A stretch of DNA of 64,000 nt from Candidatus Saccharimonadales bacterium (GCA_041910055.1 JAYRRP010000003.1:173973-237972); one strand, 5' to 3'. Positions 10,261 to 60,652 are shown, counted from the stretch's first letter. Notes: generated by a model from the letters alone, not told the origin. Program-made: numbers and translations.

Positions 10261-11354
10261 TACACTGCATCCTTAAAAGCAGCTATGATAGTCTTTATAT
10301 CATCTTGAGTTACTTTGGGATGGATTGGAAGCGAGAGTACTTCCGCTGCCGCTAGTTCGGCATTTGGAAATTGACCAATTTTATAGCCATACTTAGCTAT
10401 ATGAGGAAAGAAGTGCAGTGGTTTAGGATAATAAACACCGCTAATGATTTCCCTTTCTCGTAAGAACTTAATTAGTTCATCGCGTGTCATAGAAAAGTTC
10501 TTTTTTATCCTGATTGTGTATTGATGAAAAACATGAGTGCGGTCAGATGCTAATTGTGGTAGTTCTATGCCTGGAATACCAACTAGGCCCTTGTTTAGGG
10601 TATTGGCATTTTTCTGGCGTGCCTCATTAAAATCGTCAACTTTTTTGATTTGTTCCAAAGCAATTGCTGCATGCAGGTCAGACATTCGATAGTTGTATCC
10701 AATATGCTCATATTGATACTGGGCGTTCATACCATGCTGACGAAACCGGCGAATAGCATCAGCTTGTTGCTGACTGTTAGTTGTTACCACACCTCCTTCG
10801 CCACTCATAATATTCTTGGTTGCATACAGCGAAAAGCAACCTAAATCTCCTAGATTACCGGCTTTCTTGTTACCGTATGTTGCGCCGATAGCTTGACAAG
10901 CATCTTCAATAATTCTTAGTTTACGCCGTTTTGCTATTGTTTGAATTTTTGTCATATCAGCTGGCTGGCCATACAAGTGAACAGGTAAAATAGCTCTCGT
11001 TTTGTTTGTAACAGCTTGTTCAATTTTAGTAGCATCAATGTTAAATGTATTCGATTCAACATCAACGAAGATTGGTTTCGCACCAAGCATCAAAATAGGA
11101 TTAACTGTTGCAATAAAGCTAAAAGGGGTCGTTATCACTTCATCACCAGGCTGAATGCCCGCTGCAAAGAGCGCACAGTGAATCGCAGCTGTACCGCTGT
11201 TTAAGGTCAGTGCATATTTTGTTCCACAATACTTCGCGAATGCTGCTTCAAGATCAACGACCTTGGGGCCTTGTGCTAACATGCCCGACGATAATACATC
11301 ATTGACAGCTTTTATTTCTTCTTCAGCAATAATTGGCTGAGCGATCCGAATCAT
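10260..11354 (-). CDS. DegT/DnrJ/EryC1/StrS-family PLP-dependent sugar aminotransferase
   Basis: The protein is 364 aa. The PLP-lysine context is FSLYATKNIMSGEGG, with family similarity across the full length. Confidence 0.9.
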   Translation of the reverse strand: MIRIAQPIIAEEEIKAVNDVLSSGMLAQGPKVVDLEAAFAKYCGTKYALTLNSGTAAIHCALFAAGIQPGDEVITTPFSFIATVNPILMLGAKPIFVDVESNTFNIDATKIEQAVTNKTRAILPVHLYGQPADMTKIQTIAKRRKLRIIEDACQAIGATYGNKKAGNLGDLGCFSLYATKNIMSGEGGVVTTNSQQQADAIRRFRQHGMNAQYQYEHIGYNYRMSDLHAAIALEQIKKVDDFNEARQKNANTLNKGLVGIPGIELPQLASDRTHVFHQYTIRIKKNFSMTRDELIKFLREREIISGVYYPKPLHFFPHIAKYGYKIGQFPNAELAAAEVLSLPIHPKVTQDDIKTIIAAFKDAV

Positions 11355-47036: not shown

Positions 47037-50000
47037 TTATTTTTTGCAGTGGCGGGCTAGGTTATTTTCTTTCCATTTCTCTAATGTGACCATCTGTATA
47101 CCTAGAATGTCGTAGTCCACTTCATAGAAACCGGTTTCATTAACATATACTGCGTGTGGGTGGGTAAGCAGGAGTTCTTGGGCAATCACTCCCACATATA
47201 TTTGGTCGCTCCACAGGTATTGGAAGCTATATAGATTAATGTTGTAAATATAATCAATACGTGTAATATTGCGCTTAAGTCGTCGATCAGATGGAGTGAT
47301 GGATGGCCCTGGTGGTCCTGCTGCAGGACCACCGCCAGCGGGTGGAGTTGGGGGGGCTCCACCACCCACGCTTCCACTAGTAGATTGTTGGGCACTAAGC
47401 TCACGTCGCATGTCCAGGTATGCTTGATTGTTTGGACCATATCGCCGACTTTCCATTACTTCTCGCAGTGTCGCTCCAGCAATACCAGGAGGTAGTGCTG
47501 TAGGTGGCAGAGACAGTAACTCATCTGCAAGTATGTCTGCCTTGTTGGGGGAAGTAGCCGCCATAGTATCGTAAAGATTTGCCACTCGAGCCAATTCTCT
47601 GTCGTAAGCGGCCCCTCCCTGGCTGGCTGCCTGAGTAAGTCTGTCCCGCATTTCGGGTATAAGTGCTCTAACTGCTGCAGGCTTCATACTTGCGTGTGCT
47701 ATAGTGCCTGCCGCCTGTGAGTTGACAACGTCTCTGGAAACATCAACTGTTGCAGCTCTTGCATCATAGGCAGGACCTGCGGGCGTTCTGCCTGTTTGCA
47801 GGTTTTCCATAGCGGTGGCCATAGTTGCAAAACCAGCTCCACCAAGGTCGACTCTACCAGATCCCATTGCCCCACCTCGCATTTCCGCGAGCATTCTGCC
47901 AGCTACGCTTCTATCTCCTCCAGATGCGGCATTAATGGCCTCAAGCATTTCACCTGAATCTGAGAAACCCGTACCAGTAGCTGCCTGCGCTCTCGTGGCA
48001 GCAACACGAGCAACAGAATCACTCGTTTCTCTTTTGGCTCTCATCACTTCACCAACAGCTTCATCTAATACTCGTGGGTCACTAAATCTTTGGGGCGCTC
48101 TTCTTTGCAGTACTGATCGTATACTTGCCTCGTCTGTGCCAGTCATCAGTGCCCAGAGCTTATCATCGTCACCCTTTATTGCTCCAAATGATGCGCTTTC
48201 TTCCATATATTTACTCGCTAAATCGAAATCTGCTGACCCTCTTGCAGTGGCCATATTCCTGCGCCACTTGCTTGGCCGGAGGCCAGCCTTAGGTACTAGT
48301 GTAGCACCCATTAGAAATGAACTAGCCCCTCTAGATACTGCATTGTTGCCCTTAAATCTGTTGCCAGCTTTCGTATCTTGCCAATTTTGGGCGGTTTGTT
48401 GCTTTCTGAAGCCCTTGAGGCGGTCGAAGGCGCCGCGCGAGCGGTCGTTTACGATGCCACCAATTTGCCCAACCGCACCGCCAGCCAGGCGGAAGGCAAA
48501 CGGCAAAGCAAAGTAAGGCCCAAAATATGCAGCAAACGCAATAAGTGAAGCCAGCGTATCGTGGAGCGTTGAATCACTCCCGGGTACAGTAGTAGAATAT
48601 GATGCTACTTTTGCAAAGGCATGTCCCGTTGCAATAAATGCTGAGATTATAGGAAAGGCGACCAAAGCTCGCCAAAAGAAATCCCACCACATTTTCCAAA
48701 CTCGTTCTGTATTGGGCAGTATGTAACAGGCTATGGCAATGGGAGCAACTATCACCAGCATCAGAATTAATAGTTGCCGAGCTGTTAGTACCAGAAATGC
48801 TATGAGTACCGCAAGTATGGCTGTTCCCATGAGGCTGAGTATTCCCAGGAAACCAAGTGATAATCCCGCTGCACCAACAGCAACGGTTCCTATCGTCAGT
48901 GCGCCATTATTAAATGTTACCCCATTACTAAAATTAGCATCAAATAACCTCTCAATTAATTCTCTAATACCTACTCCTGCCACATTTGAGAATTCAATCA
49001 TTATACGCAAGATTGGTAGTGAAATTGAGATAAATATCACCGCAAATACAAGACGAGGCATCACCTTTTTGATCGTATAAGCATCAAATGGTCCCCAGCT
49101 GACAGCTTGCGAAATAACCATTACAAGACCGGCAATTACCAGTAAGCCAAGCGAAAGGTTGCGCATACTTCCCCACGCATTCCCGAGACTGTTGTTACTA
49201 TTGTCGAAATAGTCCGAAGTAGGGAACGTCAACATATAGGTAATGAGATTATCTAGTTGTCTAACTGCGCTTTCCGCTAAGTGTAACAGCGGACACATGA
49301 ACCACTTAAGTGGATTCCAAGAGACAGCATCACAATCTATACCAGTTTTGCTATCACTGCTGCCGTTAGTGCTCCCTGTATCCTTGCCCGGCCCAAACTG
49401 TTCTGCCTTTTTAGCGACGCAAGCCTTTAGTGCTTCTTCGGTAAGGTCTTCGTTCGGATGCTCGTTAATACAATCATCCTCGTATTCCAACATATTTGCT
49501 GCATCTTGGGAATAAATATGCAACCGGAGTGCTTCGTTTACGATATTTCCACAAGAAACTTGTCCATCATCTCCTCCATCAAAGTCATAATCATGCCCGA
49601 CCGGAACTCTCTGTGCTGCTCCACCGTCATCATAGACAAATTTCCTACCATCTATCTCAAAACCGCCTGCGCTTGGATTCTTGTCTCCCTCTACTGCGCA
49701 CATATTAGTCAGGTTCCACCTTATACGCCTAATCATTTCTGAATACGTTAAAGGCATGCGCTCCGTAACGAAATCTTCAGCTTTGTTTCTTACTTCATCT
49801 ACTTTTTCATTTATAAGAATCCAGTCTGAGCCGCTTTTTGTATAAAGTTCTTCTGTTTTAAACCCTAAGTATGATTCTACGGAACCGAGTTGATCGCATC
49901 GAACTATGCCATTTGAATAGCCTAAATCGTTCCCAATAGGTACTTCGCGGTGTGTGCCAAGTACGAACCCAGAATCATTCCATGCGGTTGCAAAAGTCGG

Positions 50001-50234
50001 AGCGTCAGTAAGTGATGGGGTTGTAGCTACTCTATTTCTTATGCCTATGTCTAAACAGTTTATGAACGCTCTTACTTCACGTCGTTTCTTCTGCTCTTCT
50101 TCAGAAATGCGTTGAGCGGCATCAGCCTCTACTTTTCCGGTATTTATTATCAAAAAAGAAAAAGTGTGTATACCTACAGAAACGGCGAACAATAACAGGA
50201 TACCTAATAAGGAAGTTTTAGTTTTTGCTTTCAT
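47037..50234 (-). CDS. VirB6/TrbL-like polytopic T4SS protein with large N-terminal ectodomain, Ala/Gly-rich C-terminal region and terminal peptidase-S74 intramolecular-chaperone (tail-fibre autoprocessing) domain
   Basis: There is an N-terminal signal/anchor. A TM cluster covers about nt 48435-49187 and includes a TrbL/VirB6-like segment (LTARQLLILMLVIVAPIAIACYILPNTERVWKMWWDFFWRALVAFP). The C-terminal 84 aa, SDRRLKRNITRI...VGVIAQELLLTHPHAV...EVDYDILG, match the S74 signature (SDxRLKxNI ... G.IAQE ... VDY). Confidence 0.7.
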   Translation of the reverse strand: MKAKTKTSLLGILLLFAVSVGIHTFSFLIINTGKVEADAAQRISEEEQKKRREVRAFINCLDIGIRNRVATTPSLTDAPTFATAWNDSGFVLGTHREVPIGNDLGYSNGIVRCDQLGSVESYLGFKTEELYTKSGSDWILINEKVDEVRNKAEDFVTERMPLTYSEMIRRIRWNLTNMCAVEGDKNPSAGGFEIDGRKFVYDDGGAAQRVPVGHDYDFDGGDDGQVSCGNIVNEALRLHIYSQDAANMLEYEDDCINEHPNEDLTEEALKACVAKKAEQFGPGKDTGSTNGSSDSKTGIDCDAVSWNPLKWFMCPLLHLAESAVRQLDNLITYMLTFPTSDYFDNSNNSLGNAWGSMRNLSLGLLVIAGLVMVISQAVSWGPFDAYTIKKVMPRLVFAVIFISISLPILRIMIEFSNVAGVGIRELIERLFDANFSNGVTFNNGALTIGTVAVGAAGLSLGFLGILSLMGTAILAVLIAFLVLTARQLLILMLVIVAPIAIACYILPNTERVWKMWWDFFWRALVAFPIISAFIATGHAFAKVASYSTTVPGSDSTLHDTLASLIAFAAYFGPYFALPFAFRLAGGAVGQIGGIVNDRSRGAFDRLKGFRKQQTAQNWQDTKAGNRFKGNNAVSRGASSFLMGATLVPKAGLRPSKWRRNMATARGSADFDLASKYMEESASFGAIKGDDDKLWALMTGTDEASIRSVLQRRAPQRFSDPRVLDEAVGEVMRAKRETSDSVARVAATRAQAATGTGFSDSGEMLEAINAASGGDRSVAGRMLAEMRGGAMGSGRVDLGGAGFATMATAMENLQTGRTPAGPAYDARAATVDVSRDVVNSQAAGTIAHASMKPAAVRALIPEMRDRLTQAASQGGAAYDRELARVANLYDTMAATSPNKADILADELLSLPPTALPPGIAGATLREVMESRRYGPNNQAYLDMRRELSAQQSTSGSVGGGAPPTPPAGGGPAAGPPGPSITPSDRRLKRNITRIDYIYNINLYSFQYLWSDQIYVGVIAQELLLTHPHAVYVNETGFYEVDYDILGIQMVTLEKWKENNLARHCKK

Positions 50235-50377: not shown

Positions 50378-50860
50378 ATGAAACAAAAAATAACACTGAA
50401 CATTCGTTTGCTAGGAGTAATTCTTGTCAGTGCATTTGTAGCTACAATGTTACTCATTCCTGGTAGCGCACAGGCCCACTCTAACTATTTAGTTCCACCA
50501 CGAATTGTTGCCCAAGCCTCTACCCCTGATCAGCAAGCGCAGCAGGATCCAGAGAAAACACCCGTAAAAGAATTGCCAAGATCTGAGGGTTCAAGGGAGT
50601 GTAATAAAGACGTCGCAGGAGAGTGTGTTTCCAAAATGTTTGACTACATCAATTATGCTATTGCTGCCATAGCGGCACTTACGGGGGTAGTGATAATAAT
50701 TGCAATCATTGCAGCTGGGATCGAGTATGCTTCTGCCGGGGGGGACCCGCAAAAGGTAGCCAGCGCCAAAAATCGCATCCGAAACGCAATTATCGGATTA
50801 ATTGCCTTTGGGCTATTGTTTGGATTCTTAAGTTGGCTCGTGCCTGGAGGGATAGGCTAA
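50378..50860 (+). CDS. VirB2/TrbC-like T4SS pilin paralog 1
   Basis: It has a signal peptide (LLGVILVSAFVATMLLIPGSAQA), a Cys pair (CNKDVAGEC), then two hydrophobic helices flanking the loop GIEYASAGGDPQKVASAKNRI. Confidence 0.7.
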   Translation: MKQKITLNIRLLGVILVSAFVATMLLIPGSAQAHSNYLVPPRIVAQASTPDQQAQQDPEKTPVKELPRSEGSRECNKDVAGECVSKMFDYINYAIAAIAALTGVVIIIAIIAAGIEYASAGGDPQKVASAKNRIRNAIIGLIAFGLLFGFLSWLVPGGIG

Positions 50861-50861
50861 G

Positions 50862-51236
50862 ATGCTCCAATATCTTCATTTATTTGCGGCAGCATGTAAT
50901 AGCAAAAATTTCTTAGGTATTTTACCCACTTGGTATAAATATCTGCCAACCTCACCAGGTAACGGGCTAGAATGTAATGTGAACTTTGACCCTAGGCAAG
51001 CTGACCAGTGGGGTTTCATAGCCTTAGCATTTGTGGATATTTTGGTACGCGTAGCCGGAATAGTCGCCTTGGGTTTTATCATATATGGCGGTATACGATA
51101 TATCACTAGCCAGGGAGAACCGGATGCGACCCGTGAGGCGCAGCATACAGTTACAAATGCAGTGATTGGCCTTGTCATTGCCATAATCGGCGCTACCGTT
51201 ATAGCGTTCATTGGCAAAACCTTGGGAGGGTCATAA
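50862..51236 (+). CDS. VirB2/TrbC-like T4SS pilin paralog 2
   Basis: Two hydrophobic helices flank GGIRYITSQGEPDATREAQHTV. The gene starts 2 nt after paralog 1. Confidence 0.65.
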   Translation: MLQYLHLFAAACNSKNFLGILPTWYKYLPTSPGNGLECNVNFDPRQADQWGFIALAFVDILVRVAGIVALGFIIYGGIRYITSQGEPDATREAQHTVTNAVIGLVIAIIGATVIAFIGKTLGGS

Positions 51237-51239
51237 ATC

Positions 51240-51521
51240 ATGCTACCTGCCATGTTTACAATTATTTCCCAGATATCTACCGCACCATTGCCGAAAGTTG
51301 ACGACAGTACGACGGTTACGGTGTTACTTCAACTAACTTTTGGTATTGCGGGTGCGCTAACAGTGTTGTTTCTTGTGTGGGGCGGCTTTAAGTATGTGAC
51401 CAGCCAGGGCGAGCCAGATCGGATTGCCAAAGCCAAAGATACAATATTATATTCGGTTATTGGGCTGGTAGTTACCATTGCATCATATGGAATAGTAGCG
51501 TACGTGACGAGGTGGCTATGA
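51240..51521 (+). CDS. VirB2/TrbC-like T4SS pilin paralog 3 (shortest, 93 aa)
   Basis: Two hydrophobic helices flank GGFKYVTSQGEPDRIAKAKDTI. Confidence 0.65.
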   Translation: MLPAMFTIISQISTAPLPKVDDSTTVTVLLQLTFGIAGALTVLFLVWGGFKYVTSQGEPDRIAKAKDTILYSVIGLVVTIASYGIVAYVTRWL

Positions 51522-51898
51522 GACATAGAGCAATAGTTGCATCAGTAATTGTACTTTTGAGCATGAGCGTGGTGACATTTGCGCTGGTGCCGACAGCAAG
51601 AGCTTTTTCACCAGTCAAAACTGCTTGCCCAGCGGAATCAGCGGGCTGCCCAGCAAATCCATCCAACCCTTTTTATGGCCCTAATGGGCTTATTACCAAG
51701 CTTACCACTGTAGTAGCAATTTTTACTGGAGTGGCGGCGGTGTTTGTGCTGGTAATTGCCGGTATATCATTTATGACCTCTGGCGGTGAACCGAATAAAA
51801 TTGCCACGGCACGACGCATGGTGCTCTACGCAATAGTCGGTATTGTCGTCGCAGTACTAGCGCAAGGTATCGCAAGTTTTGTATTATCTAAGCTATGA
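51512..51898 (+). CDS. VirB2/TrbC-like T4SS pilin paralog 4
   Basis: It has a signal peptide, a Cys pair (CPAESAGC), and helices flanking GISFMTSGGEPNKIATARRMV. It overlaps paralog 3 by 10 nt. Confidence 0.65.
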   Translation: MAMRHRAIVASVIVLLSMSVVTFALVPTARAFSPVKTACPAESAGCPANPSNPFYGPNGLITKLTTVVAIFTGVAAVFVLVIAGISFMTSGGEPNKIATARRMVLYAIVGIVVAVLAQGIASFVLSKL

Positions 51899-52299
51899 GC
51901 AACAAAATAAAACAATTTAACAGATTTTTGGTAGCTGGCTTATTGGTAAGCGTGTTCTTCAGTAGCTTTGCATTAGCTACCCCCCAACATTCTTATGCAC
52001 AAGACGCAAAAAATGCCGCCTGTGAGGGGGCGCAGCTAACAAATTGCAATGTGCAAAATGGCGGTCTGACTGTAGACAAGGTGCTGAGGTTTGCCTTGAA
52101 CACCCTCAGCATTGCTGCCGGCATCGTCGCGGTAGTGATGATTATTGTCGGTGGATTTAAGTATATGACTTCGCAAGGAGACGCCAACCAAACGGCAGCG
52201 GCCAAGAACACCATATTATATGCTGTGGTTGGCGTTATAATTGCGGTACTGGCGCAGGTGATTGTGCATTTCGTGCTCAGCCGAGTCAATAAAACGTGA
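51895..52299 (+). CDS. VirB2/TrbC-like T4SS pilin paralog 5
   Basis: It has a signal peptide, a Cys pair (CEGAQLTNC), and helices flanking GGFKYMTSQGDANQTAAAKNTI. It has a 4-nt overlap with paralog 4. Confidence 0.65.
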   Translation: MSNKIKQFNRFLVAGLLVSVFFSSFALATPQHSYAQDAKNAACEGAQLTNCNVQNGGLTVDKVLRFALNTLSIAAGIVAVVMIIVGGFKYMTSQGDANQTAAAKNTILYAVVGVIIAVLAQVIVHFVLSRVNKT

Positions 52300-52368
52300 C
52301 CCCTTCTTGAATAAATATAAGCATATATGGTATAACCAAAAGCAAGATAAGAAAGGCCAAAAATAATT

Positions 52369-52779
52369 ATGATCAAGAAAATCAAGACACTATTGCTTAC
52401 CGCCAGTTTAGTGGGAAGTGTGCTCGTACCGGCTGTGGTGCCTATAGCGGCGCACGCTCAAGAGCTGATTAGCCCCACCCGATGCGGTACTGATTTAACA
52501 GCTAACAACGTAAACTGTGAAGCCAATGATCCTACTTCTGAAGAGCGAGTCAACAACATTATTAAATTGGCGATTAATACTTTCTCTATCCTTGTCGGTA
52601 TCGTTTCGGTGGTCATGATAATTGTCGGCGGCCTGAAGTACATCACCTCTGGTGGTGAATCAGCCAACGTCACCAGTGCCAAGAATACGATTCTTTACGC
52701 GGTCATTGGTCTGGTTATTGTGGCGCTAGCCCAGATAATCGTGCGCTTTGTTCTATCTCGAACTGCCAGCGCCGGCTAG
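52369..52779 (+). CDS. VirB2/TrbC-like T4SS pilin paralog 6
   Basis: It has a signal peptide, a Cys pair (CGTDLTANNVNC), and helices flanking GGLKYITSGGESANVTSAKNTI. Confidence 0.65.
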   Translation: MIKKIKTLLLTASLVGSVLVPAVVPIAAHAQELISPTRCGTDLTANNVNCEANDPTSEERVNNIIKLAINTFSILVGIVSVVMIIVGGLKYITSGGESANVTSAKNTILYAVIGLVIVALAQIIVRFVLSRTASAG

Positions 52780-54159: not shown

Positions 54160-54199
54160 GGCTATCCTTAGAAGTTAGGTATACTATTAGTTGGTATAG

Positions 54200-54289
54200 G
54201 GAGAGGTGTCCGAGTGGTTGAAGGAACTGGTCTTGAAAACCAGCGGGCCGGCAACGGTCTCGTGGGTTCGAATCCCACCCTCTCCGCCA
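54200..54289 (+). tRNA. tRNA-Ser (anticodon UGA), CCA encoded
   Basis: Hand-folded. The acceptor pairs GGAGAGG/CCTCTCC. The anticodon stem CTGGT/ACCAG carries the loop CTTGAAA. A long variable arm and a T arm GTGGG-TTCGAAT-CCCAC are present, followed by discriminator G and CCA. Confidence 0.9.
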
Positions 54290-54453
54290 AGTTTTATAGC
54301 CAGGTTCAGGCCTGGTTATAAAACTTGTTGAAGTGATATGAGAACCCAATCTTTTGCGTAGCAAAAGGGGTTCGGTGGAGCGAAAGCTCTCGCAGAAACT
54401 TGTTTCGAGAAAGCGTGAACGGAAGAGGACGAAGTCCGCTATCCCACCTCTCT
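54290..54453 (+). other. tRNA-linked element E1 (structured RNA or miniature integrative element), ending in a degenerate copy of the tRNA-Ser 3' end
   Basis: A 14-bp hairpin spans 54291-54324. The ATGAGAACCC core lies at 54338-54347, followed by the hairpin CTTTTGC-GTA-GCAAAAG flanked by GAACCC/GGGTTC. Next come a GAGC-GAAA-GCTC hairpin, GAAAC-TT-GTTTC at 54395-54406, and the terminal ATCCCACCTCTCT at 54441-54453. The corresponding tRNA sequence is ATCCCACCCTCTCC. Confidence 0.4.
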
Positions 54454-54516
54454 AAGTTTAAGTGTACCCACGAGCGAGTTTTCAAATTAGCTTTTGAGCG
54501 TATAATAATTTCTACT

Positions 54517-54738
54517 ATGTCAGATGATTACACAGGTGTATTACTCGAGAAAATCCAAGATCAGCTGCAGCGGTTAGCAGAAGCTATGGCTGACGTGCCG
54601 ACTAAGGTAGATGATATTGATCAGCGTCTTCGTGAAGTGGAGTCAGACGTTAAAGTGATAAAAGCAGCTGTGACTGATCAAAGCCGCCAGCTCCAAGAGC
54701 AAAGTCAGCGCCTAAACACGCTTGAATCACATGCTTAG
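54517..54738 (+). CDS. Small coiled-coil hypothetical protein (73 aa)
   Basis: The track ORF starts at 54400, inside element E1. The ATG at 54517 is preceded by TATAAT at 54501-54506, so the transcript is possibly leaderless. The sequence is heptad-rich (LEKIQDQLQRLAEAMADVPTKVDDIDQRLREVESDVKVIKAAV). Confidence 0.45.
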   Translation: MSDDYTGVLLEKIQDQLQRLAEAMADVPTKVDDIDQRLREVESDVKVIKAAVTDQSRQLQEQSQRLNTLESHA

Positions 54739-54808
54739 TACTGGCATCTAATTATCGTAGCAATATATTATGGGGCGAGAGTTGATCATCTCCTATCTGT
54801 AATTATGT

Positions 54809-55411
54809 ATGTTTTTGGAACCGTTGTACAATACGCTTATGCCAGAGAGTCAAACCGATCCCGCTGTGGCGCCTCCTCAGGGGCAATGGCAGTTTCATGC
54901 CGAAGATGCCTCTACTGAAACGGGCGAAGCTGGAATTGAACCTTTAGCGGATATAGAACCAGTGACATGGACTGCCTCAGAGTTTATTGCGCACCATAAA
55001 TCTGCCGGTTGGTACGTCGTATTAGCGGTGGTCACAATTATCTTTAGTGGGCTAATTTTTTGGTTCACGAGGGACTTTATAACGGTTGGACTTATTGCGG
55101 TAGCGTCAGTGTTATTTGGTGTCATGGCTTCCAGAAAGCCGCGCGAGTTGCAGTACCAGATCGACGGTAGCGGCATCCAGGTTGGCGAGAAATTATACCC
55201 TTACAGCAGCTTTAAGTCATTTGCGGTTGTGCAAGAAGAAGGTATAGAGTCGATTTGGTTTATGCCACTCAAAAGGTTCATGCCAAGCCTAAGCATTTAC
55301 TTTGCTCCAGACGAAAAGGAGAAAATTGCGAACGCCCTTTCGGCGGCTCTGCCGTTTGAGAACCGACAACTTGACCCACTCGACAAGCTCATACACAAAA
55401 TTCGGTTTTAG
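54809..55411 (+). CDS. Hypothetical membrane protein (two TM helices + small PH-like C-terminal domain)
   Basis: Hydrophobic segments are WYVVLAVVTIIFSGLIFWF and VGLIAVASVLFGVMA. No enzymatic motif is present. An alternative start lies at the ATG at 54839. Confidence 0.5.
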   Translation: MFLEPLYNTLMPESQTDPAVAPPQGQWQFHAEDASTETGEAGIEPLADIEPVTWTASEFIAHHKSAGWYVVLAVVTIIFSGLIFWFTRDFITVGLIAVASVLFGVMASRKPRELQYQIDGSGIQVGEKLYPYSSFKSFAVVQEEGIESIWFMPLKRFMPSLSIYFAPDEKEKIANALSAALPFENRQLDPLDKLIHKIRF

Positions 55412-55467
55412 AACAGTAGTAACAAGAGAGGGTATGTGGTAAACTCTTCCCTGTTCTTTAAGGACGT

Positions 55468-55544
55468 GCACCCGTAGCTCAGCTGGATAGAGCGTTGGCT
55501 TGCGGAGCCAAAGGCCACAGGTTCGAATCCTGTCGGGTGTACCA
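55468..55544 (+). tRNA. tRNA-Arg (anticodon GCG by hand fold), CCA encoded
   Basis: The tRNA is 77 nt. The acceptor pairs GCACCCG/CGGGTGT and the D arm is GCTC-AGCTGGATA-GAGC (A20 present). The anticodon stem TTGGC/GCCAA carries the loop TTGCGGA. The T arm is ACAGG-TTCGAAT-CCTGT, followed by discriminator A and CCA. Confidence 0.85.
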
Positions 55545-55720
55545 CGCATGAACCCCACCTTGCGTGGGGTTTTTGCGTGGTTTGGTTGTCTCATGAATGA
55601 GAACCGTACGGCGTAGCCGAGGTTCGGCGAAGTGAGGGCACGCGCAGAAATGTATATTGCATTTCGAGCATGGCCGAATGAAGGAGCCGCGGAGGCGGCG
55701 ATATCCTGTCGGGTGTACCA
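55545..55720 (+). other. tRNA-linked element E2, ending in an exact 18-nt copy of the tRNA-Arg 3' end
   Basis: The ATGAGAACC core lies at 55597-55605. It is followed by the hairpin CGGC-GTA-GCCG flanked by GAACC/GGTTC, the hairpin GAAATG-n7-CATTTC at 55647-55665, and the GC hairpin GCCGC-GGAG-GCGGC. The element ends with ATCCTGTCGGGTGTACCA at 55703-55720, identical to the tRNA from the T-loop to CCA. Confidence 0.4.
55551..55575 (+). terminator. Rho-independent terminator immediately after tRNA-Arg
   Basis: The hairpin aaCCCCAC-cttgc-GTGGGGtt is followed by a T run (tttttg). Confidence 0.6.
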
Positions 55721-55734
55721 GACAAAATTTTAAG

Positions 55735-55756
55735 CCATCACGTGAGTGATGGTTTT
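55735..55756. terminator. Hairpin terminator (possibly bidirectional) after element E2 and after the convergent minus-strand gene
   Basis: The stem CCATCAC-GTGA-GTGATGG carries a GNRA loop, is followed by TTTT on the plus strand, and is preceded by AAAATTTT (a T run on the minus strand). Confidence 0.5.
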
Positions 55757-55815
55757 AAATTTAGGCTCGCAAAAAGTGAGCCATTCTATCTAAATAACTT
55801 ACTTGGGTTGCGTGA

Positions 55816-57105
55816 CTAAGCAGACTTGCGGCGTCGTATTGTAGAGTTTGCCTGTACCTGACCACCTATTAACTCGACGATCAATACAAGTAAAAGCAAA
55901 ATACCGAGATACACCAACAGGCTTCGAATGGTTAGGCGTGCCAGCAACATTAGGAGTGTTAAAAAGGCAACAATAAACCACTGGATTGTCCTTTTATGTT
56001 CATAAAAGAACCTAGTGATACGGTTTTCTTGTGAGAATAATCTTTGATGCAGTTTGCCACTAAACAGTAATGCTACTTGCTTTTTGATGGCGCTGGCGTA
56101 GCGCGAAGGGCCACTGACCCAGGCGATAATTCCAATAATAAGTAAGGCACATAAAATGGTGGTAGTTTGAACTGCCAACGGATTAAGTACAATTTGCAGT
56201 GCATTACGCACACCTGCTTGGTATTGGGAATCTGCTCGTCCAGTAATCGTCTCGATGGCAATGCGGCGGGCAATAAGGGTGGCTATCATCATGCCGGCTG
56301 AAGCCCAACAAAAGACATATAGAGTGCGCCGGCGATAACGGCTGAGCCACATTGCTCCTACTAAGGCCAGTACCATCAATGTAACTGCTAAAAATCTCCA
56401 TGTGTTTATATTTGTCACAACATTATGTGCTTCGGGCAGCCAGGAGGCAGTGACCACGTTTACATTCCCAATATTTGCAGGCAGAGTCTTATTAGCTAAA
56501 AACGACAACTTTGTATAAGATAATCGGCTGCTGAGTTGGTTATAGATGTCATTGAGTGAGATAGAACCATCACCTTCATACTTCGTGACAAAGCCGATAA
56601 GTCGTTGATGTTGGTTGGCTATGGCCGTATTCCAACGATCCTGAAAAGCCGGTCGGGCCAACACACTTTGCAGCGTGTTCTGGGTCTGTGTTTTTATTTG
56701 GCTGGTTAATTGCGGAGCCAAAAAATCAGCTCGTGGAGGCAGGACTTGTTCGGTAAATGCCTGGACATCTACCTGCGCAAATAAGTTATTCGTTACATAA
56801 AGAGCCATTGCCTGTTGCACTTCCGGGTCTTGAATAACTGGCTGAACAGAAGCCGTGAAACGGTCTTGTTTGACGAGAGTATTTCCAGTCCAGAAAAATA
56901 TATTGCCAACTCCCAGGGTCACAACTGCAATACTGATGAGTAGTACCACGGTTGCCTTGCGAAACCATTCGCCTATGTTTCTGCTTTTTTTGGTAGTTTT
57001 TTGGCTATTCTGGGTTCGCTGAAGCCGCTTGACCTCAGCTTTTAAGGCCGTGTTTTCAGATCGAAGTTTTTTCAGTTGCTCGGTGGTTGACAATCTCGCT
57101 GCCAT
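55816..57105 (-). CDS. Hypothetical polytopic membrane protein with an N-terminal coiled-coil
   Basis: The protein is 429 aa. The N-terminus is EQLKKLRSENTALKAEVKRLQRTQ, and one early TM helix plus about five C-terminal hydrophobic segments follow. Confidence 0.55.
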   Translation of the reverse strand: MAARLSTTEQLKKLRSENTALKAEVKRLQRTQNSQKTTKKSRNIGEWFRKATVVLLISIAVVTLGVGNIFFWTGNTLVKQDRFTASVQPVIQDPEVQQAMALYVTNNLFAQVDVQAFTEQVLPPRADFLAPQLTSQIKTQTQNTLQSVLARPAFQDRWNTAIANQHQRLIGFVTKYEGDGSISLNDIYNQLSSRLSYTKLSFLANKTLPANIGNVNVVTASWLPEAHNVVTNINTWRFLAVTLMVLALVGAMWLSRYRRRTLYVFCWASAGMMIATLIARRIAIETITGRADSQYQAGVRNALQIVLNPLAVQTTTILCALLIIGIIAWVSGPSRYASAIKKQVALLFSGKLHQRLFSQENRITRFFYEHKRTIQWFIVAFLTLLMLLARLTIRSLLVYLGILLLLVLIVELIGGQVQANSTIRRRKSA

Positions 57106-57256
57106 ATCGGTCCCTCCAGACTAATCCACCCTATTCCTTATTAATAACACGTAAACCTCAATAAAACCAACTTTCATGTTAATGTAAGCAGTTATTGGTA
57201 GTGTAGAATGAGTGATAGCAGGATATTGTGGGGCTGCATAACAGGAGAGGTTACCT

Positions 57257-58849
57257 ATGAAAAAGTGGCTGGTGATTGCAATTTTAGCTATTTCACAATT
57301 CGTGATGATCCTTGATAGCACAGTTATGAATGTGTCGATTAGTACGGTTGCCAAAGATCTAGGAACGACCATATCTGGTATGCAAGCCGCCATTACCTTC
57401 TATGCATTGACTATGGCTGCATTGATGCTGACTGGCGGGAAGATGGGTGATAAATGGGGCAGGCATAACGCGTTTAAGATAGGTTCTATAGTTTATGGGG
57501 TGGGTTCGCTCACGACAGCGCTTGCACCCAGCTTAGGTGTTTTACTGCTCGGATGGTCATTGGTGGAAGGCTTGGGAGCAGTCCTGGTGATACCTGCTAT
57601 CGCCGCTCTGGCGGCAATTAATTACAAAGGTAAAGACCGGGTAGTTGCATTTTCTATACTTGGCGCTGCCACAGGTCTGGCCGCCGCCGCTGGCCCGCTC
57701 ATCGGTGGCATGGTGACGACATACTTTTCCTGGCGTTATGTATTTGCTGCTGAAACGGTAGTTATGGCGGTGGTCTTACTCGTTAGCAATAAGATTTATG
57801 ACGTGAAACCAAAAAAGAAGACCAGCTTTGATATTTTGAGCACATTTTTATCTGCCATCGGCATGGCGCTATTAGTGTTTGGTGTTTTGCAAAGCAAAAC
57901 GTGGGGATGGATAAAGCCATTGGGCTACCCAGAAATTAATGGACACAAAATTGCGCCACTTGGCATATCACTTGTTTCCTATCTTGTTCTGTCCGGTATT
58001 GTGGTGTTGTGGATCTTTCTTCAGCGCCAGAAGAAACTCGAAGCAACAGGAGGCAACCCTTTGCTACGGGTATCTTTGCTAAGAATACCAACCTTGCGAA
58101 GTGGATTGAGTGTGCTGATGGGGCAATACTTTACTATTGCAGCTCTGTTTTTTGTCATTCCGGTTTACTTGCAAACTATTCTTGGTTACGATGCATTGCA
58201 AACCGGTATAAAAATTATTCCTTTATCAATCGGGCTGGTAGCGTTCTCAGCGCTTGGCTCCAGGATGTCGTCTAAGCGTTCGGCCAAACAAATTACAAGG
58301 CTTGGTCAGTTCATTATGGCACTTGGTGTATTGCTCACGCTTGCATCAGTTCAGCCAGAACTAAGAGGAGCCCTATTCTGGATAGGTATGCTTATCGTTG
58401 GTGCTGGTTTTGGTTTGCTGGCAAGCCAACTGGGGAATGTCAACATGTCGGCTGTTGAGAAAAAAGACACTGCAGAGGTGGGCGGACTACAAGGAACTTA
58501 CCAAAACCTTGGTTCATCGTTTGGCACCGCGATTGTAGGCTCTATATTCATGCTTTCATTGACGTCTGGTTTTATAGCTTCTGTTAACAGTAGCCCCAAT
58601 CTTTCTCAAACTGCAAAGCAACAGGTAGCTACTCAGGCCCAGTATGGTGTTCAAATTGTCTCACAATCCCAAGTCCAGCAGTATGTTGTAAAAAGTGGGG
58701 GTAGCAAACAAACGGCTGACACTATTGCAAACCTCTACCAGGAGTCTCAAATTGCTGCCCTCAAACAGGCTCTCTTTATTGTGTTCGCTGTCGGTATATT
58801 ATCAATATTATTTGCCCGCAATTTACCAATCACTATCCAAAACAAATAG
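57257..58849 (+). CDS. MFS transporter, DHA2 (EmrB/QacA-like, 14-TMS) drug:H+ antiporter family
   Basis: MFS motif A is LTGGKMGDKWGRHN. The protein is 530 aa with about 14 hydrophobic segments. An AGGAGAGG RBS is present. Confidence 0.85.
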   Translation: MKKWLVIAILAISQFVMILDSTVMNVSISTVAKDLGTTISGMQAAITFYALTMAALMLTGGKMGDKWGRHNAFKIGSIVYGVGSLTTALAPSLGVLLLGWSLVEGLGAVLVIPAIAALAAINYKGKDRVVAFSILGAATGLAAAAGPLIGGMVTTYFSWRYVFAAETVVMAVVLLVSNKIYDVKPKKKTSFDILSTFLSAIGMALLVFGVLQSKTWGWIKPLGYPEINGHKIAPLGISLVSYLVLSGIVVLWIFLQRQKKLEATGGNPLLRVSLLRIPTLRSGLSVLMGQYFTIAALFFVIPVYLQTILGYDALQTGIKIIPLSIGLVAFSALGSRMSSKRSAKQITRLGQFIMALGVLLTLASVQPELRGALFWIGMLIVGAGFGLLASQLGNVNMSAVEKKDTAEVGGLQGTYQNLGSSFGTAIVGSIFMLSLTSGFIASVNSSPNLSQTAKQQVATQAQYGVQIVSQSQVQQYVVKSGGSKQTADTIANLYQESQIAALKQALFIVFAVGILSILFARNLPITIQNK

Positions 58850-58911
58850 AAAAACGCAAGCAAAACCAATTTATTAGCTACAAATAGCATATAATAAAAA
58901 TAGATAGGACC

Positions 58912-60369
58912 TTGGAGGGTATGGAGAGTGATATATTAGAAATTGACAAGCCCCGTGAAGCCTGTGGAGTGTTTGGTATTTATGCGCCCGGTGAAGATGT
59001 AGTTGCTTCTGCCTACTTAGGAGCCGCGGCTTTGCAACATCGTGGGCAAGATGCTGCCGGTATAGCGGTGTGGAATGAGGGCAAATTGAATGGTTATAAA
59101 GATACTGGTCTTGTTTCAGAAGTGCTAACTCACGCGGTGCGGGAGAGCTTGGAGCCAGCTGAGGCAGCAATTGCGCACACACGTTATGGGACTGTTGAAG
59201 GTAAAGGATTTCAAGCAGCTCAACCAATTCCAAAAGAAGGGCCTGACGGAGAATATTTCGCACTTGCTCACAACGGCCATATTGCCATCGGGCCACCGAA
59301 ACTTTCGGCTCACACGACGGATTCGGAGTGGTTTGCTGATCAGGTTGCAAAGAGGTGGGCAGAGGGCGCACCGCTACCGCAAGCGTTGGCGGAAACAGCG
59401 CGCGGAGTGGTTGGAGCATATTCTATTGTTGTCTTAGGGCAAGGCCAGCTTATTGCCATGCGTGATCCTAATGGTTTTCGTCCGCTTGAACTAGGTAAGC
59501 TAGAAAATAAAGATGCCTATGTGGTGGCCAGTGAAAGCGTGGCTTTAGATCAAGTTGGCGCGACACATTTGCGAGAAATAAATCCCGGTGAACTGGTAGT
59601 GATTAACAATGAAGGAGTGCATAGCCGACAATTTGCCGAGCCAAATCCTAAGTTATGTTCCTTTGAGAACGTTTACTTTGCGCGCCCCGACAGCATTATC
59701 AATGGTGAGGTTGTGCAGGAAACTCGATTCCGCATGGGGGAGTATCTGGCAGAGCAAAATGAGGTCGAAGCTGATATGGTAATTGGAGTGCCTAATTCAG
59801 GATTAGCAGCTGCTGAAGGCTTTGCCGAAGCCAGCGGCATTCCTATGAGGCAAGCGTTAATTAAAAACCCGTATGTTACCAGGACATTTATCAAAGATAA
59901 TCAGGCAGACCGCGAAGCAGCTGTAAGAATGAAGCTTAATCCTCTCAAAAACAGAATTGCTGGCCAGCGGCTTATTATCATAGATGATTCGATTGTCCGC
60001 GGCACAACAACGAAGGCACTGGTTTCTATGTTCCGAAAAGCTGGCGCTAGTGAAATACACATGAAAGTATCGTCGCCGCCCTACTCATTTCCCTGTTATT
60101 ACGGCATGGACACAGGACGGACGTCAGAGTTGCTCGCGAACAGAATGGACAAAAGTGAAATGACTGAGTATCTGGGCCTTGATTCGCTTGATTTTTTGAG
60201 CCTAGATAATTTACAAAAAGCAATTGCTCGACCGGTGGGCACACTTTGCATGGCTTGTATGAACGGAGAATATCCGACGGAAATAGAAACACCACACTTA
60301 TTAATAAATCCCCAAAATATATTGAGAGTAATGGGGTCCCATGGGCCCTACCGCATAATGAATTTATAA
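58912..60369 (+). CDS. purF: Amidophosphoribosyltransferase (glutamine-PRPP amidotransferase), Fe-S/propeptide type
   Basis: The catalytic N-terminal nucleophile context is EACGVFGIY, after a ~17-aa propeptide. The PRPP loop is LIIIDDSIVRGTT. The Cys pattern (CSFENVYFARPDS, FPCYYG, CMACMNGEYP) matches the [4Fe-4S] class. Confidence 0.9.
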   Translation: MEGMESDILEIDKPREACGVFGIYAPGEDVVASAYLGAAALQHRGQDAAGIAVWNEGKLNGYKDTGLVSEVLTHAVRESLEPAEAAIAHTRYGTVEGKGFQAAQPIPKEGPDGEYFALAHNGHIAIGPPKLSAHTTDSEWFADQVAKRWAEGAPLPQALAETARGVVGAYSIVVLGQGQLIAMRDPNGFRPLELGKLENKDAYVVASESVALDQVGATHLREINPGELVVINNEGVHSRQFAEPNPKLCSFENVYFARPDSIINGEVVQETRFRMGEYLAEQNEVEADMVIGVPNSGLAAAEGFAEASGIPMRQALIKNPYVTRTFIKDNQADREAAVRMKLNPLKNRIAGQRLIIIDDSIVRGTTTKALVSMFRKAGASEIHMKVSSPPYSFPCYYGMDTGRTSELLANRMDKSEMTEYLGLDSLDFLSLDNLQKAIARPVGTLCMACMNGEYPTEIETPHLLINPQNILRVMGSHGPYRIMNL

Positions 60370-60384
60370 AGTAGACTACATCCC

Positions 60385-60475
60385 GGAGAGGTGCAGGAGT
60401 GGTTGAACTGGACGCTCTCGAAAAGCGTTGTGCCCTTTACGGGTACCGAGGGTTCGAATCCCTCTCTCTCCGCCA
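60385..60475 (+). tRNA. tRNA-Ser (anticodon CGA), CCA encoded
   Basis: The acceptor pairs GGAGAGG/TCTCTCC with one G-U. The anticodon stem ACGCT/AGCGT carries the loop CTCGAAA. A long variable arm and a T arm GAGGG-TTCGAAT-CCCTC are present, followed by discriminator G and CCA. Confidence 0.9.
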
Positions 60476-60652
60476 AGTTTTGCAGCCAAGTGCAGGCTTA
60501 GTTATAAAACTTGTTGAAGTGAAGTGATATGAGAACCCGATAGGGTGAGCAATGCCGGTGGCATTGTGCAAGGGAATCTTCCGATGAAAACTTGTTTTCA
60601 ATCGTGGAGTTCCGGGGTCGCCGGAGGTGACCGAATCCCTCTCTCTCCACCA
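60476..60652 (+). other. tRNA-linked element E3, ending in a 20/21-nt copy of the tRNA-Ser(CGA) 3' end
   Basis: By eye, the first ~60 nt are roughly 85 percent identical to E1 (AGTTTT..AGCC....CAGGC....GTTATAAAACTTGTTGAAGTGA..TATGAGAACCC). The core lies at 60529-60538. Hairpins follow: CAATGCC-GGT-GGCATTG, GAAAAC-TT-GTTTTC at 60586-60599, and TCCGG-GGTCG-CCGGA. The terminal CGAATCCCTCTCTCTCCACCA lies at 60632-60652. Confidence 0.4.

Follow-up and report, generated by a model that had tools for sequence, protein, structure and literature searches.

A candidate family of miniature structured integrative elements at the 3′ ends of tRNA genes in Saccharibacteria

Introduction

What kind of sequence can stand directly behind every tRNA gene of a genomic stretch and end, each time, in a copy of the 3′ end of that same tRNA? 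The question is raised by 64,000 nucleotides of a Candidatus Saccharimonadales bacterium (GCA_041910055.1 JAYRRP010000003.1:173973-237972; hereafter the window, meaning the whole stretch analyzed), which contains exactly three tRNA genes (ARAGORN, Rfam), each followed immediately on its 3′ side by a non-coding stretch of 164–177 nt (E1, E2, and E3). An earlier note made from the sequence alone had offered two answers, a family of miniature integrative elements, non-autonomous and able to retarget to different tRNAs, or a structured RNA module presenting a tRNA-like 3′ end. Comparison with related genomes suggests, on balance, that E1–E3 belong to a family of miniature non-coding, non-autonomous integrative elements that insert at the 3′ ends of tRNA genes and were found here in Saccharibacteria only.

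Results

Elements behind the three tRNA genes of the window

The tRNA genes, the partial copies of their 3′ ends, and the one resident terminator identified beyond an element are as follows.

54200–54289, plus strand: tRNA-Ser(UGA), target of E1 (ARAGORN; Rfam tRNA, 60.1 bits)
54441–54453, plus strand: degenerate copy of the tRNA-Ser(UGA) 3′ end, closing E1 (ATCCCACC-TCTCT)
55468–55544, plus strand: tRNA-Arg(GCG), target of E2 (ARAGORN, Rfam)
55703–55720, plus strand: terminal repeat of E2, 18/18 identical to 55527–55544, tRNA-Arg positions 59–76 (ATCCTGTCGGGTGTACCA)
55732–55755, plus strand: resident tRNA-Arg terminator, displaced by E2 and outside the element; the same hairpin lies directly 3′ of tRNA-Arg in the closest relative, L001
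60385–60475, plus strand: tRNA-Ser(CGA), target of E3 (ARAGORN, Rfam)
60632–60652, plus strand: terminal repeat of E3, 20/21 identical to 60455–60475, the tRNA-Ser(CGA) 3′ end (CGAATCCCTCTCTCTCCACCA)

The three stretches share a layout in which a hairpin that starts within the CCA is followed by a ATGAGAACC-type core, further hairpins, and a tRNA copy running from T-loop position 59 to CCA. The core motif begins at 54338, 55597, and 60529 and has four matches in 64 kb against 0.36 expected, the fourth (12891, minus strand) lying in a gene and being unrelated. The tRNA predictions, the repeats, and the motif positions together bear out the earlier description of an element behind each tRNA that ends in a copy of its tail, and the repeats are as that description had them, exact in E2, with a single mismatch in E3, and degenerate in E1. 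Compared with shuffled sequence the elements fold with z = −4.9 (E1), −3.7 (E2), and −1.9 (E3). Neither an open reading frame (ORF) nor a sigma-70-like promoter was found within them.

The earlier note had recognized no described RNA family in the elements, and Rfam 15 likewise returns only tRNAs at the gathering threshold and at E-value thresholds. Sub-threshold hits to sX4, YrlA, and a plastid motif were rejected as separate RNAs, being overlaps with, or caused by, the tRNAs themselves. The sX4 hit (40.5 bits, window 54189–54383) and the plastid psbI-rps4 3′UTR motif (55.7 bits, minus strand, window 60420–60472) are both caused by tRNA-Ser sequence.

An empty site and displaced bodies at orthologous loci

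Orthologous loci were obtained through ComF homologs, the ComF proteins of L001 and of a second relative, L003, being 95 and 63% identical to that of the window. At the L001 locus tRNA-Arg is intact and its site is empty, the sequence ...ATCCTGTCGGGTGTACCA|GACGAAATTTTAAGCCATCAC... corresponding to the window minus 55545–55720; the junction, written ...GGGTGTACCA|GACGAAATTTTAAGCCATCAC, is bounded exactly by one copy of the repeat, as would be looked for in an unoccupied target. The sequence directly 3′ of the L001 tRNA-Arg (GACGAAATTTTAAGCCATCACGTGAGTGATGG) is that found in the window just past the terminal repeat of E2. Because the two agree, E2 is a 176-nt insertion or deletion bounded exactly by the 18-nt repeat, and this presence/absence difference separates genomes that are ~90–95% identical. 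The comparison also sorts the two terminator-like hairpins said to bracket E2: the first (55545–55580) is indeed borne by the element, being missing from the L001 empty site and 87% homologous to the hairpin 3′ of tRNA-Arg in L003, whereas the second (~55732–55755) is the resident tRNA-Arg terminator, present at that empty site.

At the L003 locus all three tRNAs are followed by elements. The one behind tRNA-Arg ends in ATCCTGCCGGGTGTACCA, a copy of that genome's own tRNA variant ATCCTGCCGGG; the one behind tRNA-Ser(CGA) has an E1-type body and not an E3-type one; and the tRNA-Ser(UGA) copy has an E1-type body with a 20-nt internal deletion. The two E1-type copies of L003 agree at 89/90 positions over their common part. 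An E1-type core is found behind Ser-UGA in the window and in L001 and behind Ser-CGA in L003, with 94.5% identity between the window core and that at the L003 Ser-CGA site, where the background between the two genomes is 90–95% for the tRNAs, 86.7% for purF DNA, 66.6% for comF DNA, and 79.8% for the intergenic flank. Set against such diverged genes, this identity means that the core is either strongly constrained or recently copied, having moved or been converted between two tRNA-Ser loci. The modules are also shuffled: at tRNA-Arg the window and L003 have the hairpin in common and differ in the core, whereas at Ser-UGA the core is common and the hairpin differs.

Behind tRNA-Ser(CGA) in L001 there is no E3; unrelated DNA (L001:8226–10748) carries a cytidylyltransferase-like gene, a large serine recombinase with Resolvase, Recombinase, and Zn_ribbon_recom domains, and an acetyltransferase, and may be a different island inserted at the same tRNA.

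Further members in Saccharibacteria

A strict pattern, TGAGAACC-N-GGTTCGG-N-GCAGAAA, gave 12 matches in a collection of one genome per species. Six have the full architecture, all in metagenome-assembled genomes of Saccharibacteria; the remaining six, about as many as chance would give, fall within coding sequence of unrelated phyla. The same pattern added two members from metagenome contigs (L031 and L032) and gave only a chance hit in viral contigs. A covariance model built from 10 copies recovers all 10 at 81–122 bits and adds a second, tandem copy in L032 and a copy behind tRNA-Asp in L018. The model scores E1 at 110 and E2 at 90 bits and E3 at only 16.7, so that the single architecture proposed earlier for all three holds for E1 and E2, whereas the right part of E3 comes from another subfamily.

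The tRNAs that carry members are Ser-UGA, Ser-CGA, Ser-GGA (L016, L032), Arg-GCG, Val-GAC (L017, L018), and Asp-GUC (L018), plus one tRNA-Ser in L031, and in L016 and L032 tandem arrays adjoin the intact tRNA. All true members lie in Saccharibacteria or related metagenome contigs; phage records, plasmid records, and three further viral-contig scans gave no true match. Since a divergent member, located behind the end of an island in L040, is missed by the covariance model, the census is an underestimate. Six more relatives reached through ComF homologs (L042–L047) gave no new copies, several of their contigs ending at or near the tRNA.

Contig ends at this locus form a pattern of their own. Two contigs break off precisely at the tRNA-Ser(UGA) CCA, L002 at its position 10840 and L042 at 2215, and other ComF contigs stop 90–440 nt past that gene, which suggests that the elements, or their presence/absence polymorphism, break assemblies.

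Two orphan copies, in L008 and L015, with no tRNA within 10 kb upstream, led to a mobile-looking island that is common in Saccharibacteria (L015:2365–3959; L036:6001–7598; L038:6001–8160; L040:6001–8386). Near its right end lies the gene of a highly conserved 482-aa Zn-ribbon protein, which has >200 homologs at 45–90% identity and received no Pfam, PHROG, or NCBIfam assignment; upstream of it are an FtsK/SpoIIIE gene, a helix-turn-helix gene, and variable cargo (type I restriction, SMODS, LexA-like). The island end reads ...GTTCCGTGACCTGTATGGGGAGCCA, and GTTCCGTGACC recurs near it; L038 has this motif twice in exact form and once as the variant GTTCCATGACC. Directly behind the island end, L015 and L040 carry mini-elements, of two subtypes, and L036 and L038 carry none. 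The ends of the island adjoining the L015 and L040 copies are unlike those of the mini-elements.

Anatomy of the elements

Every copy is composed of four parts, a two-tier hairpin, a variable spacer, a core, and a tRNA copy, with an overall size of ~150–215 nt and a core of ~110 nt. The internal features of the window elements are listed here.

54290–54325, plus strand: first hairpin of E1, 16 bp, by folding; outer stem extendable to the CA of CCA (CAAG.../...CTTG)
54338–54374, plus strand: P1 module of E1, the ATGAGAACC core with GAACCC/GGGTTC stem and variable hairpin cap CTTTTGC-GTA-GCAAAAG; its 3′ end, GGGTTCG, is like a T-arm 5′ half
54375–54440, plus strand: P3/P4 module of E1 (RNAalifold, pair counts), long helix GCTCTCG...CGAGAAAGC with apical GAAAC/GTTTC, then hairpin GGAC-GAA-GTCC; 3′ end GCT
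55545–55580, plus strand: element-borne terminator hairpin of E2; outer stem CCACGCA/TGCGTGG takes in the tRNA CCA, inner stem GAACCCCAC/GTGGGGTT is followed by a T-run
55597–55626, plus strand: P1 module of E2, ATGAGAACC, hairpin CGGC-GTA-GCCG, then AGGTTCG
55627–55702, plus strand: P3/P4 module of E2 (RNAalifold, pair counts), helix GCACGCG...CGAGCATG with GAAATG/CATTTC and GCCGC-GGAG-GCGGC; 3′ end GAT
60476–60542, plus strand: left part of E3, homologous to E1, with hairpin 60476–60511, spacer, and ATGAGAACCC at 60529–60538
60543–60631, plus strand: right part of E3, a B-type core with GGTGAG, hairpin CAATGCC-GGT-GGCATTG, GCAAGG, GAAAAC/GTTTTC, and TCCGG/CCGGA

The outer stem of the two-tier hairpin starts from inside the terminal CCA (CCACGCA...TGCGTGG in E2, CCAAGATAA...TTATCTTGG in L017), and the inner stem, rich in GC, often precedes a T-run; where a tRNA is empty, its resident terminator begins 5–11 nt later than the element hairpins. 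The spacer (10–18 nt) is variable and often holds a second TGAGA-like motif. Within the core, P1 has an invariant GAACC/GGTTC stem and a variable cap, reduced to a GAA loop in L040; P3, an extended helix (GCWCKCG...CGAGMWWGC), contains a conserved internal loop and is topped by a GAAAY/RTTTC hairpin; and P4 is one more hairpin. The tail copy begins at T-loop position 58/59 (ATCC...) in 11 of 12 copies and runs to CCA. Direct repeats of the 3′ part of the tRNA are likewise present in L003, L016, L018, and L031, and the length of the terminal repeat varies (18, 21, 25, 55 nt).

E3 joins the two subfamilies. Its right part shows motif-level kinship to the L003 tRNA-Arg element (52.5% overall identity), with which it makes up the second, or B, subfamily, and judged from these alignments E3 is chimeric, its left part being of E1 type and its right part of B type. 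Two further subtypes are distinguished, C with the L018 Asp copy and L032b, and D with the L040 member. The left parts of E1 and E3 are shared, as the earlier note had it, although its estimate of ~85% identity over the first ~60 nt is reached only over 86 nt that include the tRNA tail, the value being 79% over hairpin plus spacer. Of the direct repeat AAAACTTGTT, said to occur twice per element, two exact copies are present in E3 and one exact plus one 9/10 copy in E1.

The displaced tail of L031 departs from the local tRNA at two covarying acceptor-stem positions, where it has the usual tRNA-Ser acceptor type instead; a tail can thus be brought along by the element. This mismatch argues against plain target-site duplication and places the crossover near the CCA end.

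Three structural candidates were set aside. A first-guess P2 hairpin (GGAGC-GAAA-GCTCT) was replaced by the long P3 helix, which covariation supports. Pairing of the tail with the spacer before TGAGAACC, which would make these segments terminal inverted repeats or the strands of a closing helix, is no general property: L031 shows it strongly (−20.7 kcal/mol) and L008 and L016 in part, but cognate pairs do not surpass non-cognate ones (−8.5 versus −7.3 kcal/mol; 3.4 versus 3.8 matches of 10). A miniature inverted-repeat transposable element of the DDE type does not fit either: the terminal segment shows no general complementarity to the 5′ flank, and the repeat length is variable.

Structural constraint and a T-arm mimic

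RNAalifold on a plain MAFFT alignment gives the same helices, with compensatory changes at 12 of 23 pairs. In a model-based alignment 90.7% of cells are paired compared with 70.8% in shuffles (0/500 as high) and double changes occur at 12 of 19 pairs, whereas sliding the partners lowers pairing to 32–49%. In this set of ~15 sequences, some of them related, pairing kept through compensatory changes exceeds both the shuffled and the slid controls. Between genomes with diverged genes the core is as conserved as the tRNAs. As compensatory changes would be meaningless in double-stranded binding sites, the conserved core would have to act as a folded single strand, either RNA or single-stranded DNA. 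In the stems of the tRNA-sense strand G·U outnumbers A·C by 8 to 2, which weakly favors this strand as the one that folds. For the structured RNA module of the earlier note the outcome is divided: compensatory pair changes in the core fit it, whereas a tRNA-like 3′ end is not supported, the tail copy having no 5′ acceptor-strand partner. By eye, no fit was seen to the hammerhead or to the integron attC consensus motif.

The 3′ strand of P1, nnGGTTCG, corresponds to the 5′ strand of a T-stem and the start of the T-loop. The one or two bases before GG track the cognate tRNA, with A at Arg and Val, G at Ser, and CTGG versus CCAG in L015, and the long-range pair with the tail is GC in six cases, AU in three, and CG, UA, and GU in one each. 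Selection for T-stem-like pairing and copying from the tRNA would both yield this pattern. The match grows to 15 nt in the Asp copy of L018, in which AGATCGCCGGTTCGA, a 61-nt P3/P4 module, and ATCCGGTCGGGCCCGCCA follow one another, AGATCGCCGGTTCGA/ATCCGGTCGGGCCCGCCA being a partial copy of tRNA-Asp (33 nt) that is interrupted between nucleotides 58 and 59.

Discussion

Proposed mode of insertion

Judged by comparison of the loci, the elements are insertions with exact boundaries at no fewer than six different tRNAs, form tandem arrays and chimeras, and have no coding capacity. The empty site, the same body at different tRNAs, the further copies downstream of tRNAs in relatives (Saccharibacteria Ser-GGA, Val, and Asp sites), the tandem arrays, and the lack of coding capacity all support the first of the two answers given at the outset, a miniature non-autonomous integrative family that retargets tRNAs, which we hold to be somewhat better than an even prospect. 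A circular form would consist of a duplicate of the target tRNA segment between T-loop position 59 and CCA, the element's own terminator hairpin, a short spacer, and the ~110-nt core, in which GAGAACC-hairpin-GGTTCG is followed by two helices. Recombination of this form with the resident tRNA tail would leave the tRNA gene intact and terminated, and the original tail and its terminator would be pushed to the far side of the element, giving the direct repeat. We infer that a site-specific recombinase encoded elsewhere mobilizes the elements in trans and that this machinery recognizes the conserved fold, in RNA or single-stranded DNA, together with the T-arm-like GGTTCG segment; in an RNA version the core would be read through from the tRNA promoter. 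In either form the conserved fold probably serves mobilization.

Several points weigh against this reading. No recombinase gene was seen near any copy, where the neighbors are aminoacyl-tRNA synthetases, TGT, PGI, and similar genes, nor among the scanned window ORFs (~20 of the 54 with ≥150 aa), which encode dnaA/dnaN/recF, polysaccharide-synthesis, and other housekeeping functions. Viral contigs, phage records, and plasmid records yielded no larger autonomous parent element with this core. A classical double-strand attP has its core-type binding sites directly beside the crossover, whereas here the nnGGTTCG half is parted from the ATCC... half by 61–76 nt of structured sequence, and the compensatory changes imply something beyond a lambda-type attP. 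The pair counts come from ~15 copies, some of them closely related, in an alignment fitted to the model. Finally, the exchange of tails on a move to a new tRNA species is unexplained by the model.

It is doubtful that the element is a self-targeting nucleic-acid device, in which a scaffold held between a T-stem 5′ mimic (nnGGTTCG) and a tRNA tail (ATCC..CCA) pairs with or mimics the T arm near 58/59 and so guides a trans-acting enzyme to the matching tRNA. Such a device would be a protein-less, programmable miniature mobile element in bacteria of the candidate phyla radiation (CPR), and categorically new.

Alternative explanations

The best surviving rival, which we regard as possible and still unlikely, makes the core a functional, perhaps guide-like RNA, a 3′ trailer read through from the tRNA promoter that acts either as a guide that steers insertion or cleavage to tRNA genes in the manner of TnpB omega-RNA or IS110 bridge RNA or as a trailer-derived small RNA with a cellular role. 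The 3′ segment (AUCC...CCA) is identical to the DNA after the universal T-loop motif TTCGA, directly after which the repeat starts; target-matched segments stand on both sides of the scaffold (nnGGTTCG and ATCC..CCA), with the 15-nt match of the L018 Asp copy as the longest case; and the compensatory changes in four helices, the excess of G·U over A·C (8 to 2) in the stems of the tRNA-sense strand, and a core conserved like tRNAs where genes have diverged would all suit an RNA, whose expression, with no internal promoter, would hang on that of the tRNA. However, a terminator-like hairpin, followed in E2 by a T-run, lies between tRNA and core, and older copies (E1, L017, L032a) have a decayed tail and an intact core, which is unexpected of a required guide. 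Nor is a nuclease or recombinase gene associated with any copy, and its own host would be the target of any guide with a match to the intact tRNA upstream.

An improbable alternative is that the mobile unit is the 61–76-nt P3/P4 module only, of the IS200/IS605-PATE or REP type, which would insert as single-stranded DNA into T-loops after TTCGA and be visible only in harmless partial tRNA copies left by earlier integrations. The 33-nt tRNA-Asp copy of L018, split exactly at 58/59 by 61 nt, is what such a unit would leave, and the module has hairpins at both ends, conserves structure above sequence, and, where a T-arm copy is split, immediately follows (G)GTTCG(A). Yet it is the whole 176-nt unit that differs between the window and L001 at tRNA-Arg, and GAGAACC-hairpin-GGTTCG accompanies the module at Ser, Arg, and Val sites. 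A model search of ~330 kb of Saccharibacteria DNA yielded no solo P3/P4 copy, and no transposase was found among the ORFs scanned.

That the elements are inert scars, the fused ends of larger elements or prophages that have lost their interior and have neither function nor mobility at present, seems to us even harder to credit. Integrative elements usually leave partial tRNA copies next to tRNA genes, decay is seen in the 20-nt deletion of the L003 Ser-UGA copy and the degenerate tails of E1 and L017, and the L015 and L040 elements adjoin the end of a large island. These observations are outweighed by the recurrence of the same ~110-nt core, with compensatory changes, behind six tRNAs in different genomes, by its 94.5% identity across genomes whose genes are 67–87% identical, and by the recent presence/absence difference between genomes ~90–95% identical; moreover, viral contigs, phage records, and plasmid records gave no larger element that has these ends and could be the parent.

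Local tandem duplication of tRNA 3′ regions at each locus (pseudo-tRNA formation), to which the tRNA-like pieces of the core lend some color (TGAGAACC like the anticodon loop and stem of tRNA-Ser-UGA, a hairpin at the place of the variable arm, GGTTCG like a T arm), is highly improbable and largely refuted by the present data, the same Ser-like core standing at tRNA-Arg and tRNA-Val sites, near-identical bodies occurring at non-homologous loci, and the element bringing a foreign terminator.

Other features of the window

ComF, PurF, and other proteins of the window agree with its placement in Candidatus Saccharimonadales. The window includes the dnaA-dnaN-recF region, and its syntenic loci in relatives have a type IV secretion cluster. 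At 50378–52779 (plus strand) lie six tandem paralogous small membrane proteins, adjoining a 1065-aa membrane protein (47037–50234, minus strand); in the relatives the syntenic genes are annotated as type IV secretion system pilins and a TrbL-like protein. This cluster is directly upstream of the HSP20-ComF-tRNA-Ser block, an arrangement kept in L002–L005, L044, and L047. Right after E1 a near-consensus promoter (54479–54506) precedes an ORF of ~73 aa (54518–54738, plus strand; MSDDYTGVLLEKIQDQLQRL...) that is conserved in L001 and L003. Positions 4000–26000 have a low GC content (0.38–0.43 versus 0.45–0.51 elsewhere), and from the ORFs scanned at both edges (sugar-nucleotide, glycosyltransferase, and ABC-2 transporter genes) this segment may be a surface-polysaccharide cluster of foreign or variable origin.

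Comparison with known systems

Integrative elements that target tRNA genes include tyrosine-integrase islands and prophages, the integrase-less derivatives of which are known as cis-mobilizable elements (CIMEs) (PMC5704250). The present elements resemble these in the direct repeat from inside the tRNA to its 3′ end, in the restoration of the tRNA by sequence that the element brings, in the precise empty site in a relative, and in tandem accumulation at one site; like CIMEs, they have no integrase of their own. They differ from all of these in measuring 150–215 nt and not kilobases, in having one conserved core across many tRNAs, and in a core with single-strand covariation and a T-arm-like half-site parted from the crossover side by a structured module. 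No parent integrative and conjugative element, integrative and mobilizable element, or phage and no integrase were found, so that descent by deletion, by which CIMEs are recognized, has no counterpart here.

Fragments of tRNA genes are also known as attachment-site scars (PMC9897764). E1–E3 share with these a partial copy of the tRNA 3′ end that starts in the T-loop and lies a short way downstream of an intact gene; the DNA between gene and fragment is, by contrast, a conserved structured family and not an arbitrary remnant. Sublocation classes of integration into tRNA genes were reportedly distinguished by Williams in 2002.

Hairpin-based miniature elements that move as single-stranded DNA are represented by the IS200/IS605-derived PATEs and by REP/RAYT. 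Small size, the lack of coding capacity, conserved hairpin pairing, a dependence (here presumed) on an enzyme acting in trans, and a fixed short motif (here after the T-loop TTCGA) are points in common. PATEs and REP sequences, unlike the present elements, make no 18–25-nt target duplication, supply no replacement gene end, and are not tRNA-specific, and no HUH transposase was seen among the copy neighbors and the window ORFs scanned (~20 of 54 of at least 150 aa).

Folded single strands serve as recombination sites in integron attC and CTX-phage attP(+). By analogy with these, the present core places structure above sequence, has a variable apical hairpin, and may as a folded strand mimic a double-stranded site, GAACC/GGTTC being half a T arm. 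It lacks R and L boxes (GAGAAC/GTTCGG misfits RYYYAAC/GTTRRRY), the target is different, and there is neither an integron integrase nor a dif site.

Guide RNAs at transposon ends comprise the omega-RNA of TnpB/IscB, the bridge RNA of IS110, and the homing guides of type V-K CAST that match tRNA genes. Here too a structured scaffold is followed by a 3′ target-identical segment beside a conserved motif, and retargeting tracks the flank; in contrast to those guides, no effector gene lies in or near the elements, and the tail decays in old copies. The small RNA 3′ETS-leuZ of Escherichia coli, which derives from a tRNA 3′ external transcribed spacer, is likewise non-coding, immediately downstream of a tRNA, and without its own promoter, whereas the present sequences move, recur at many tRNAs, and follow a terminator-like hairpin.

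Literature searches directed at such a family, and broader ones on tRNA-integrating and non-autonomous elements, yielded no description of it. Saccharibacteria and other CPR bacteria have tiny genomes and their mobile DNA is little known, and here a non-coding element of ~170 nt occupies all three tRNA genes of a 64-kb window, recurs in several lineages behind no fewer than six tRNA species, and keeps its essential target gene working by means of a spare 3′ end and terminator. The conserved fold and the T-arm mimic suggest a target recognition based on nucleic-acid structure and not on a self-encoded protein; the machinery, if identified, could reveal a new way of targeting tRNA genes and make the elements a marker for strain-level variation in CPR genomes. 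Compared with known elements, what differs is the miniature size, one structured core at many tRNAs, the split T-arm mimic, the hairpin that incorporates the CCA, and a distribution that so far is confined to Saccharibacteria.

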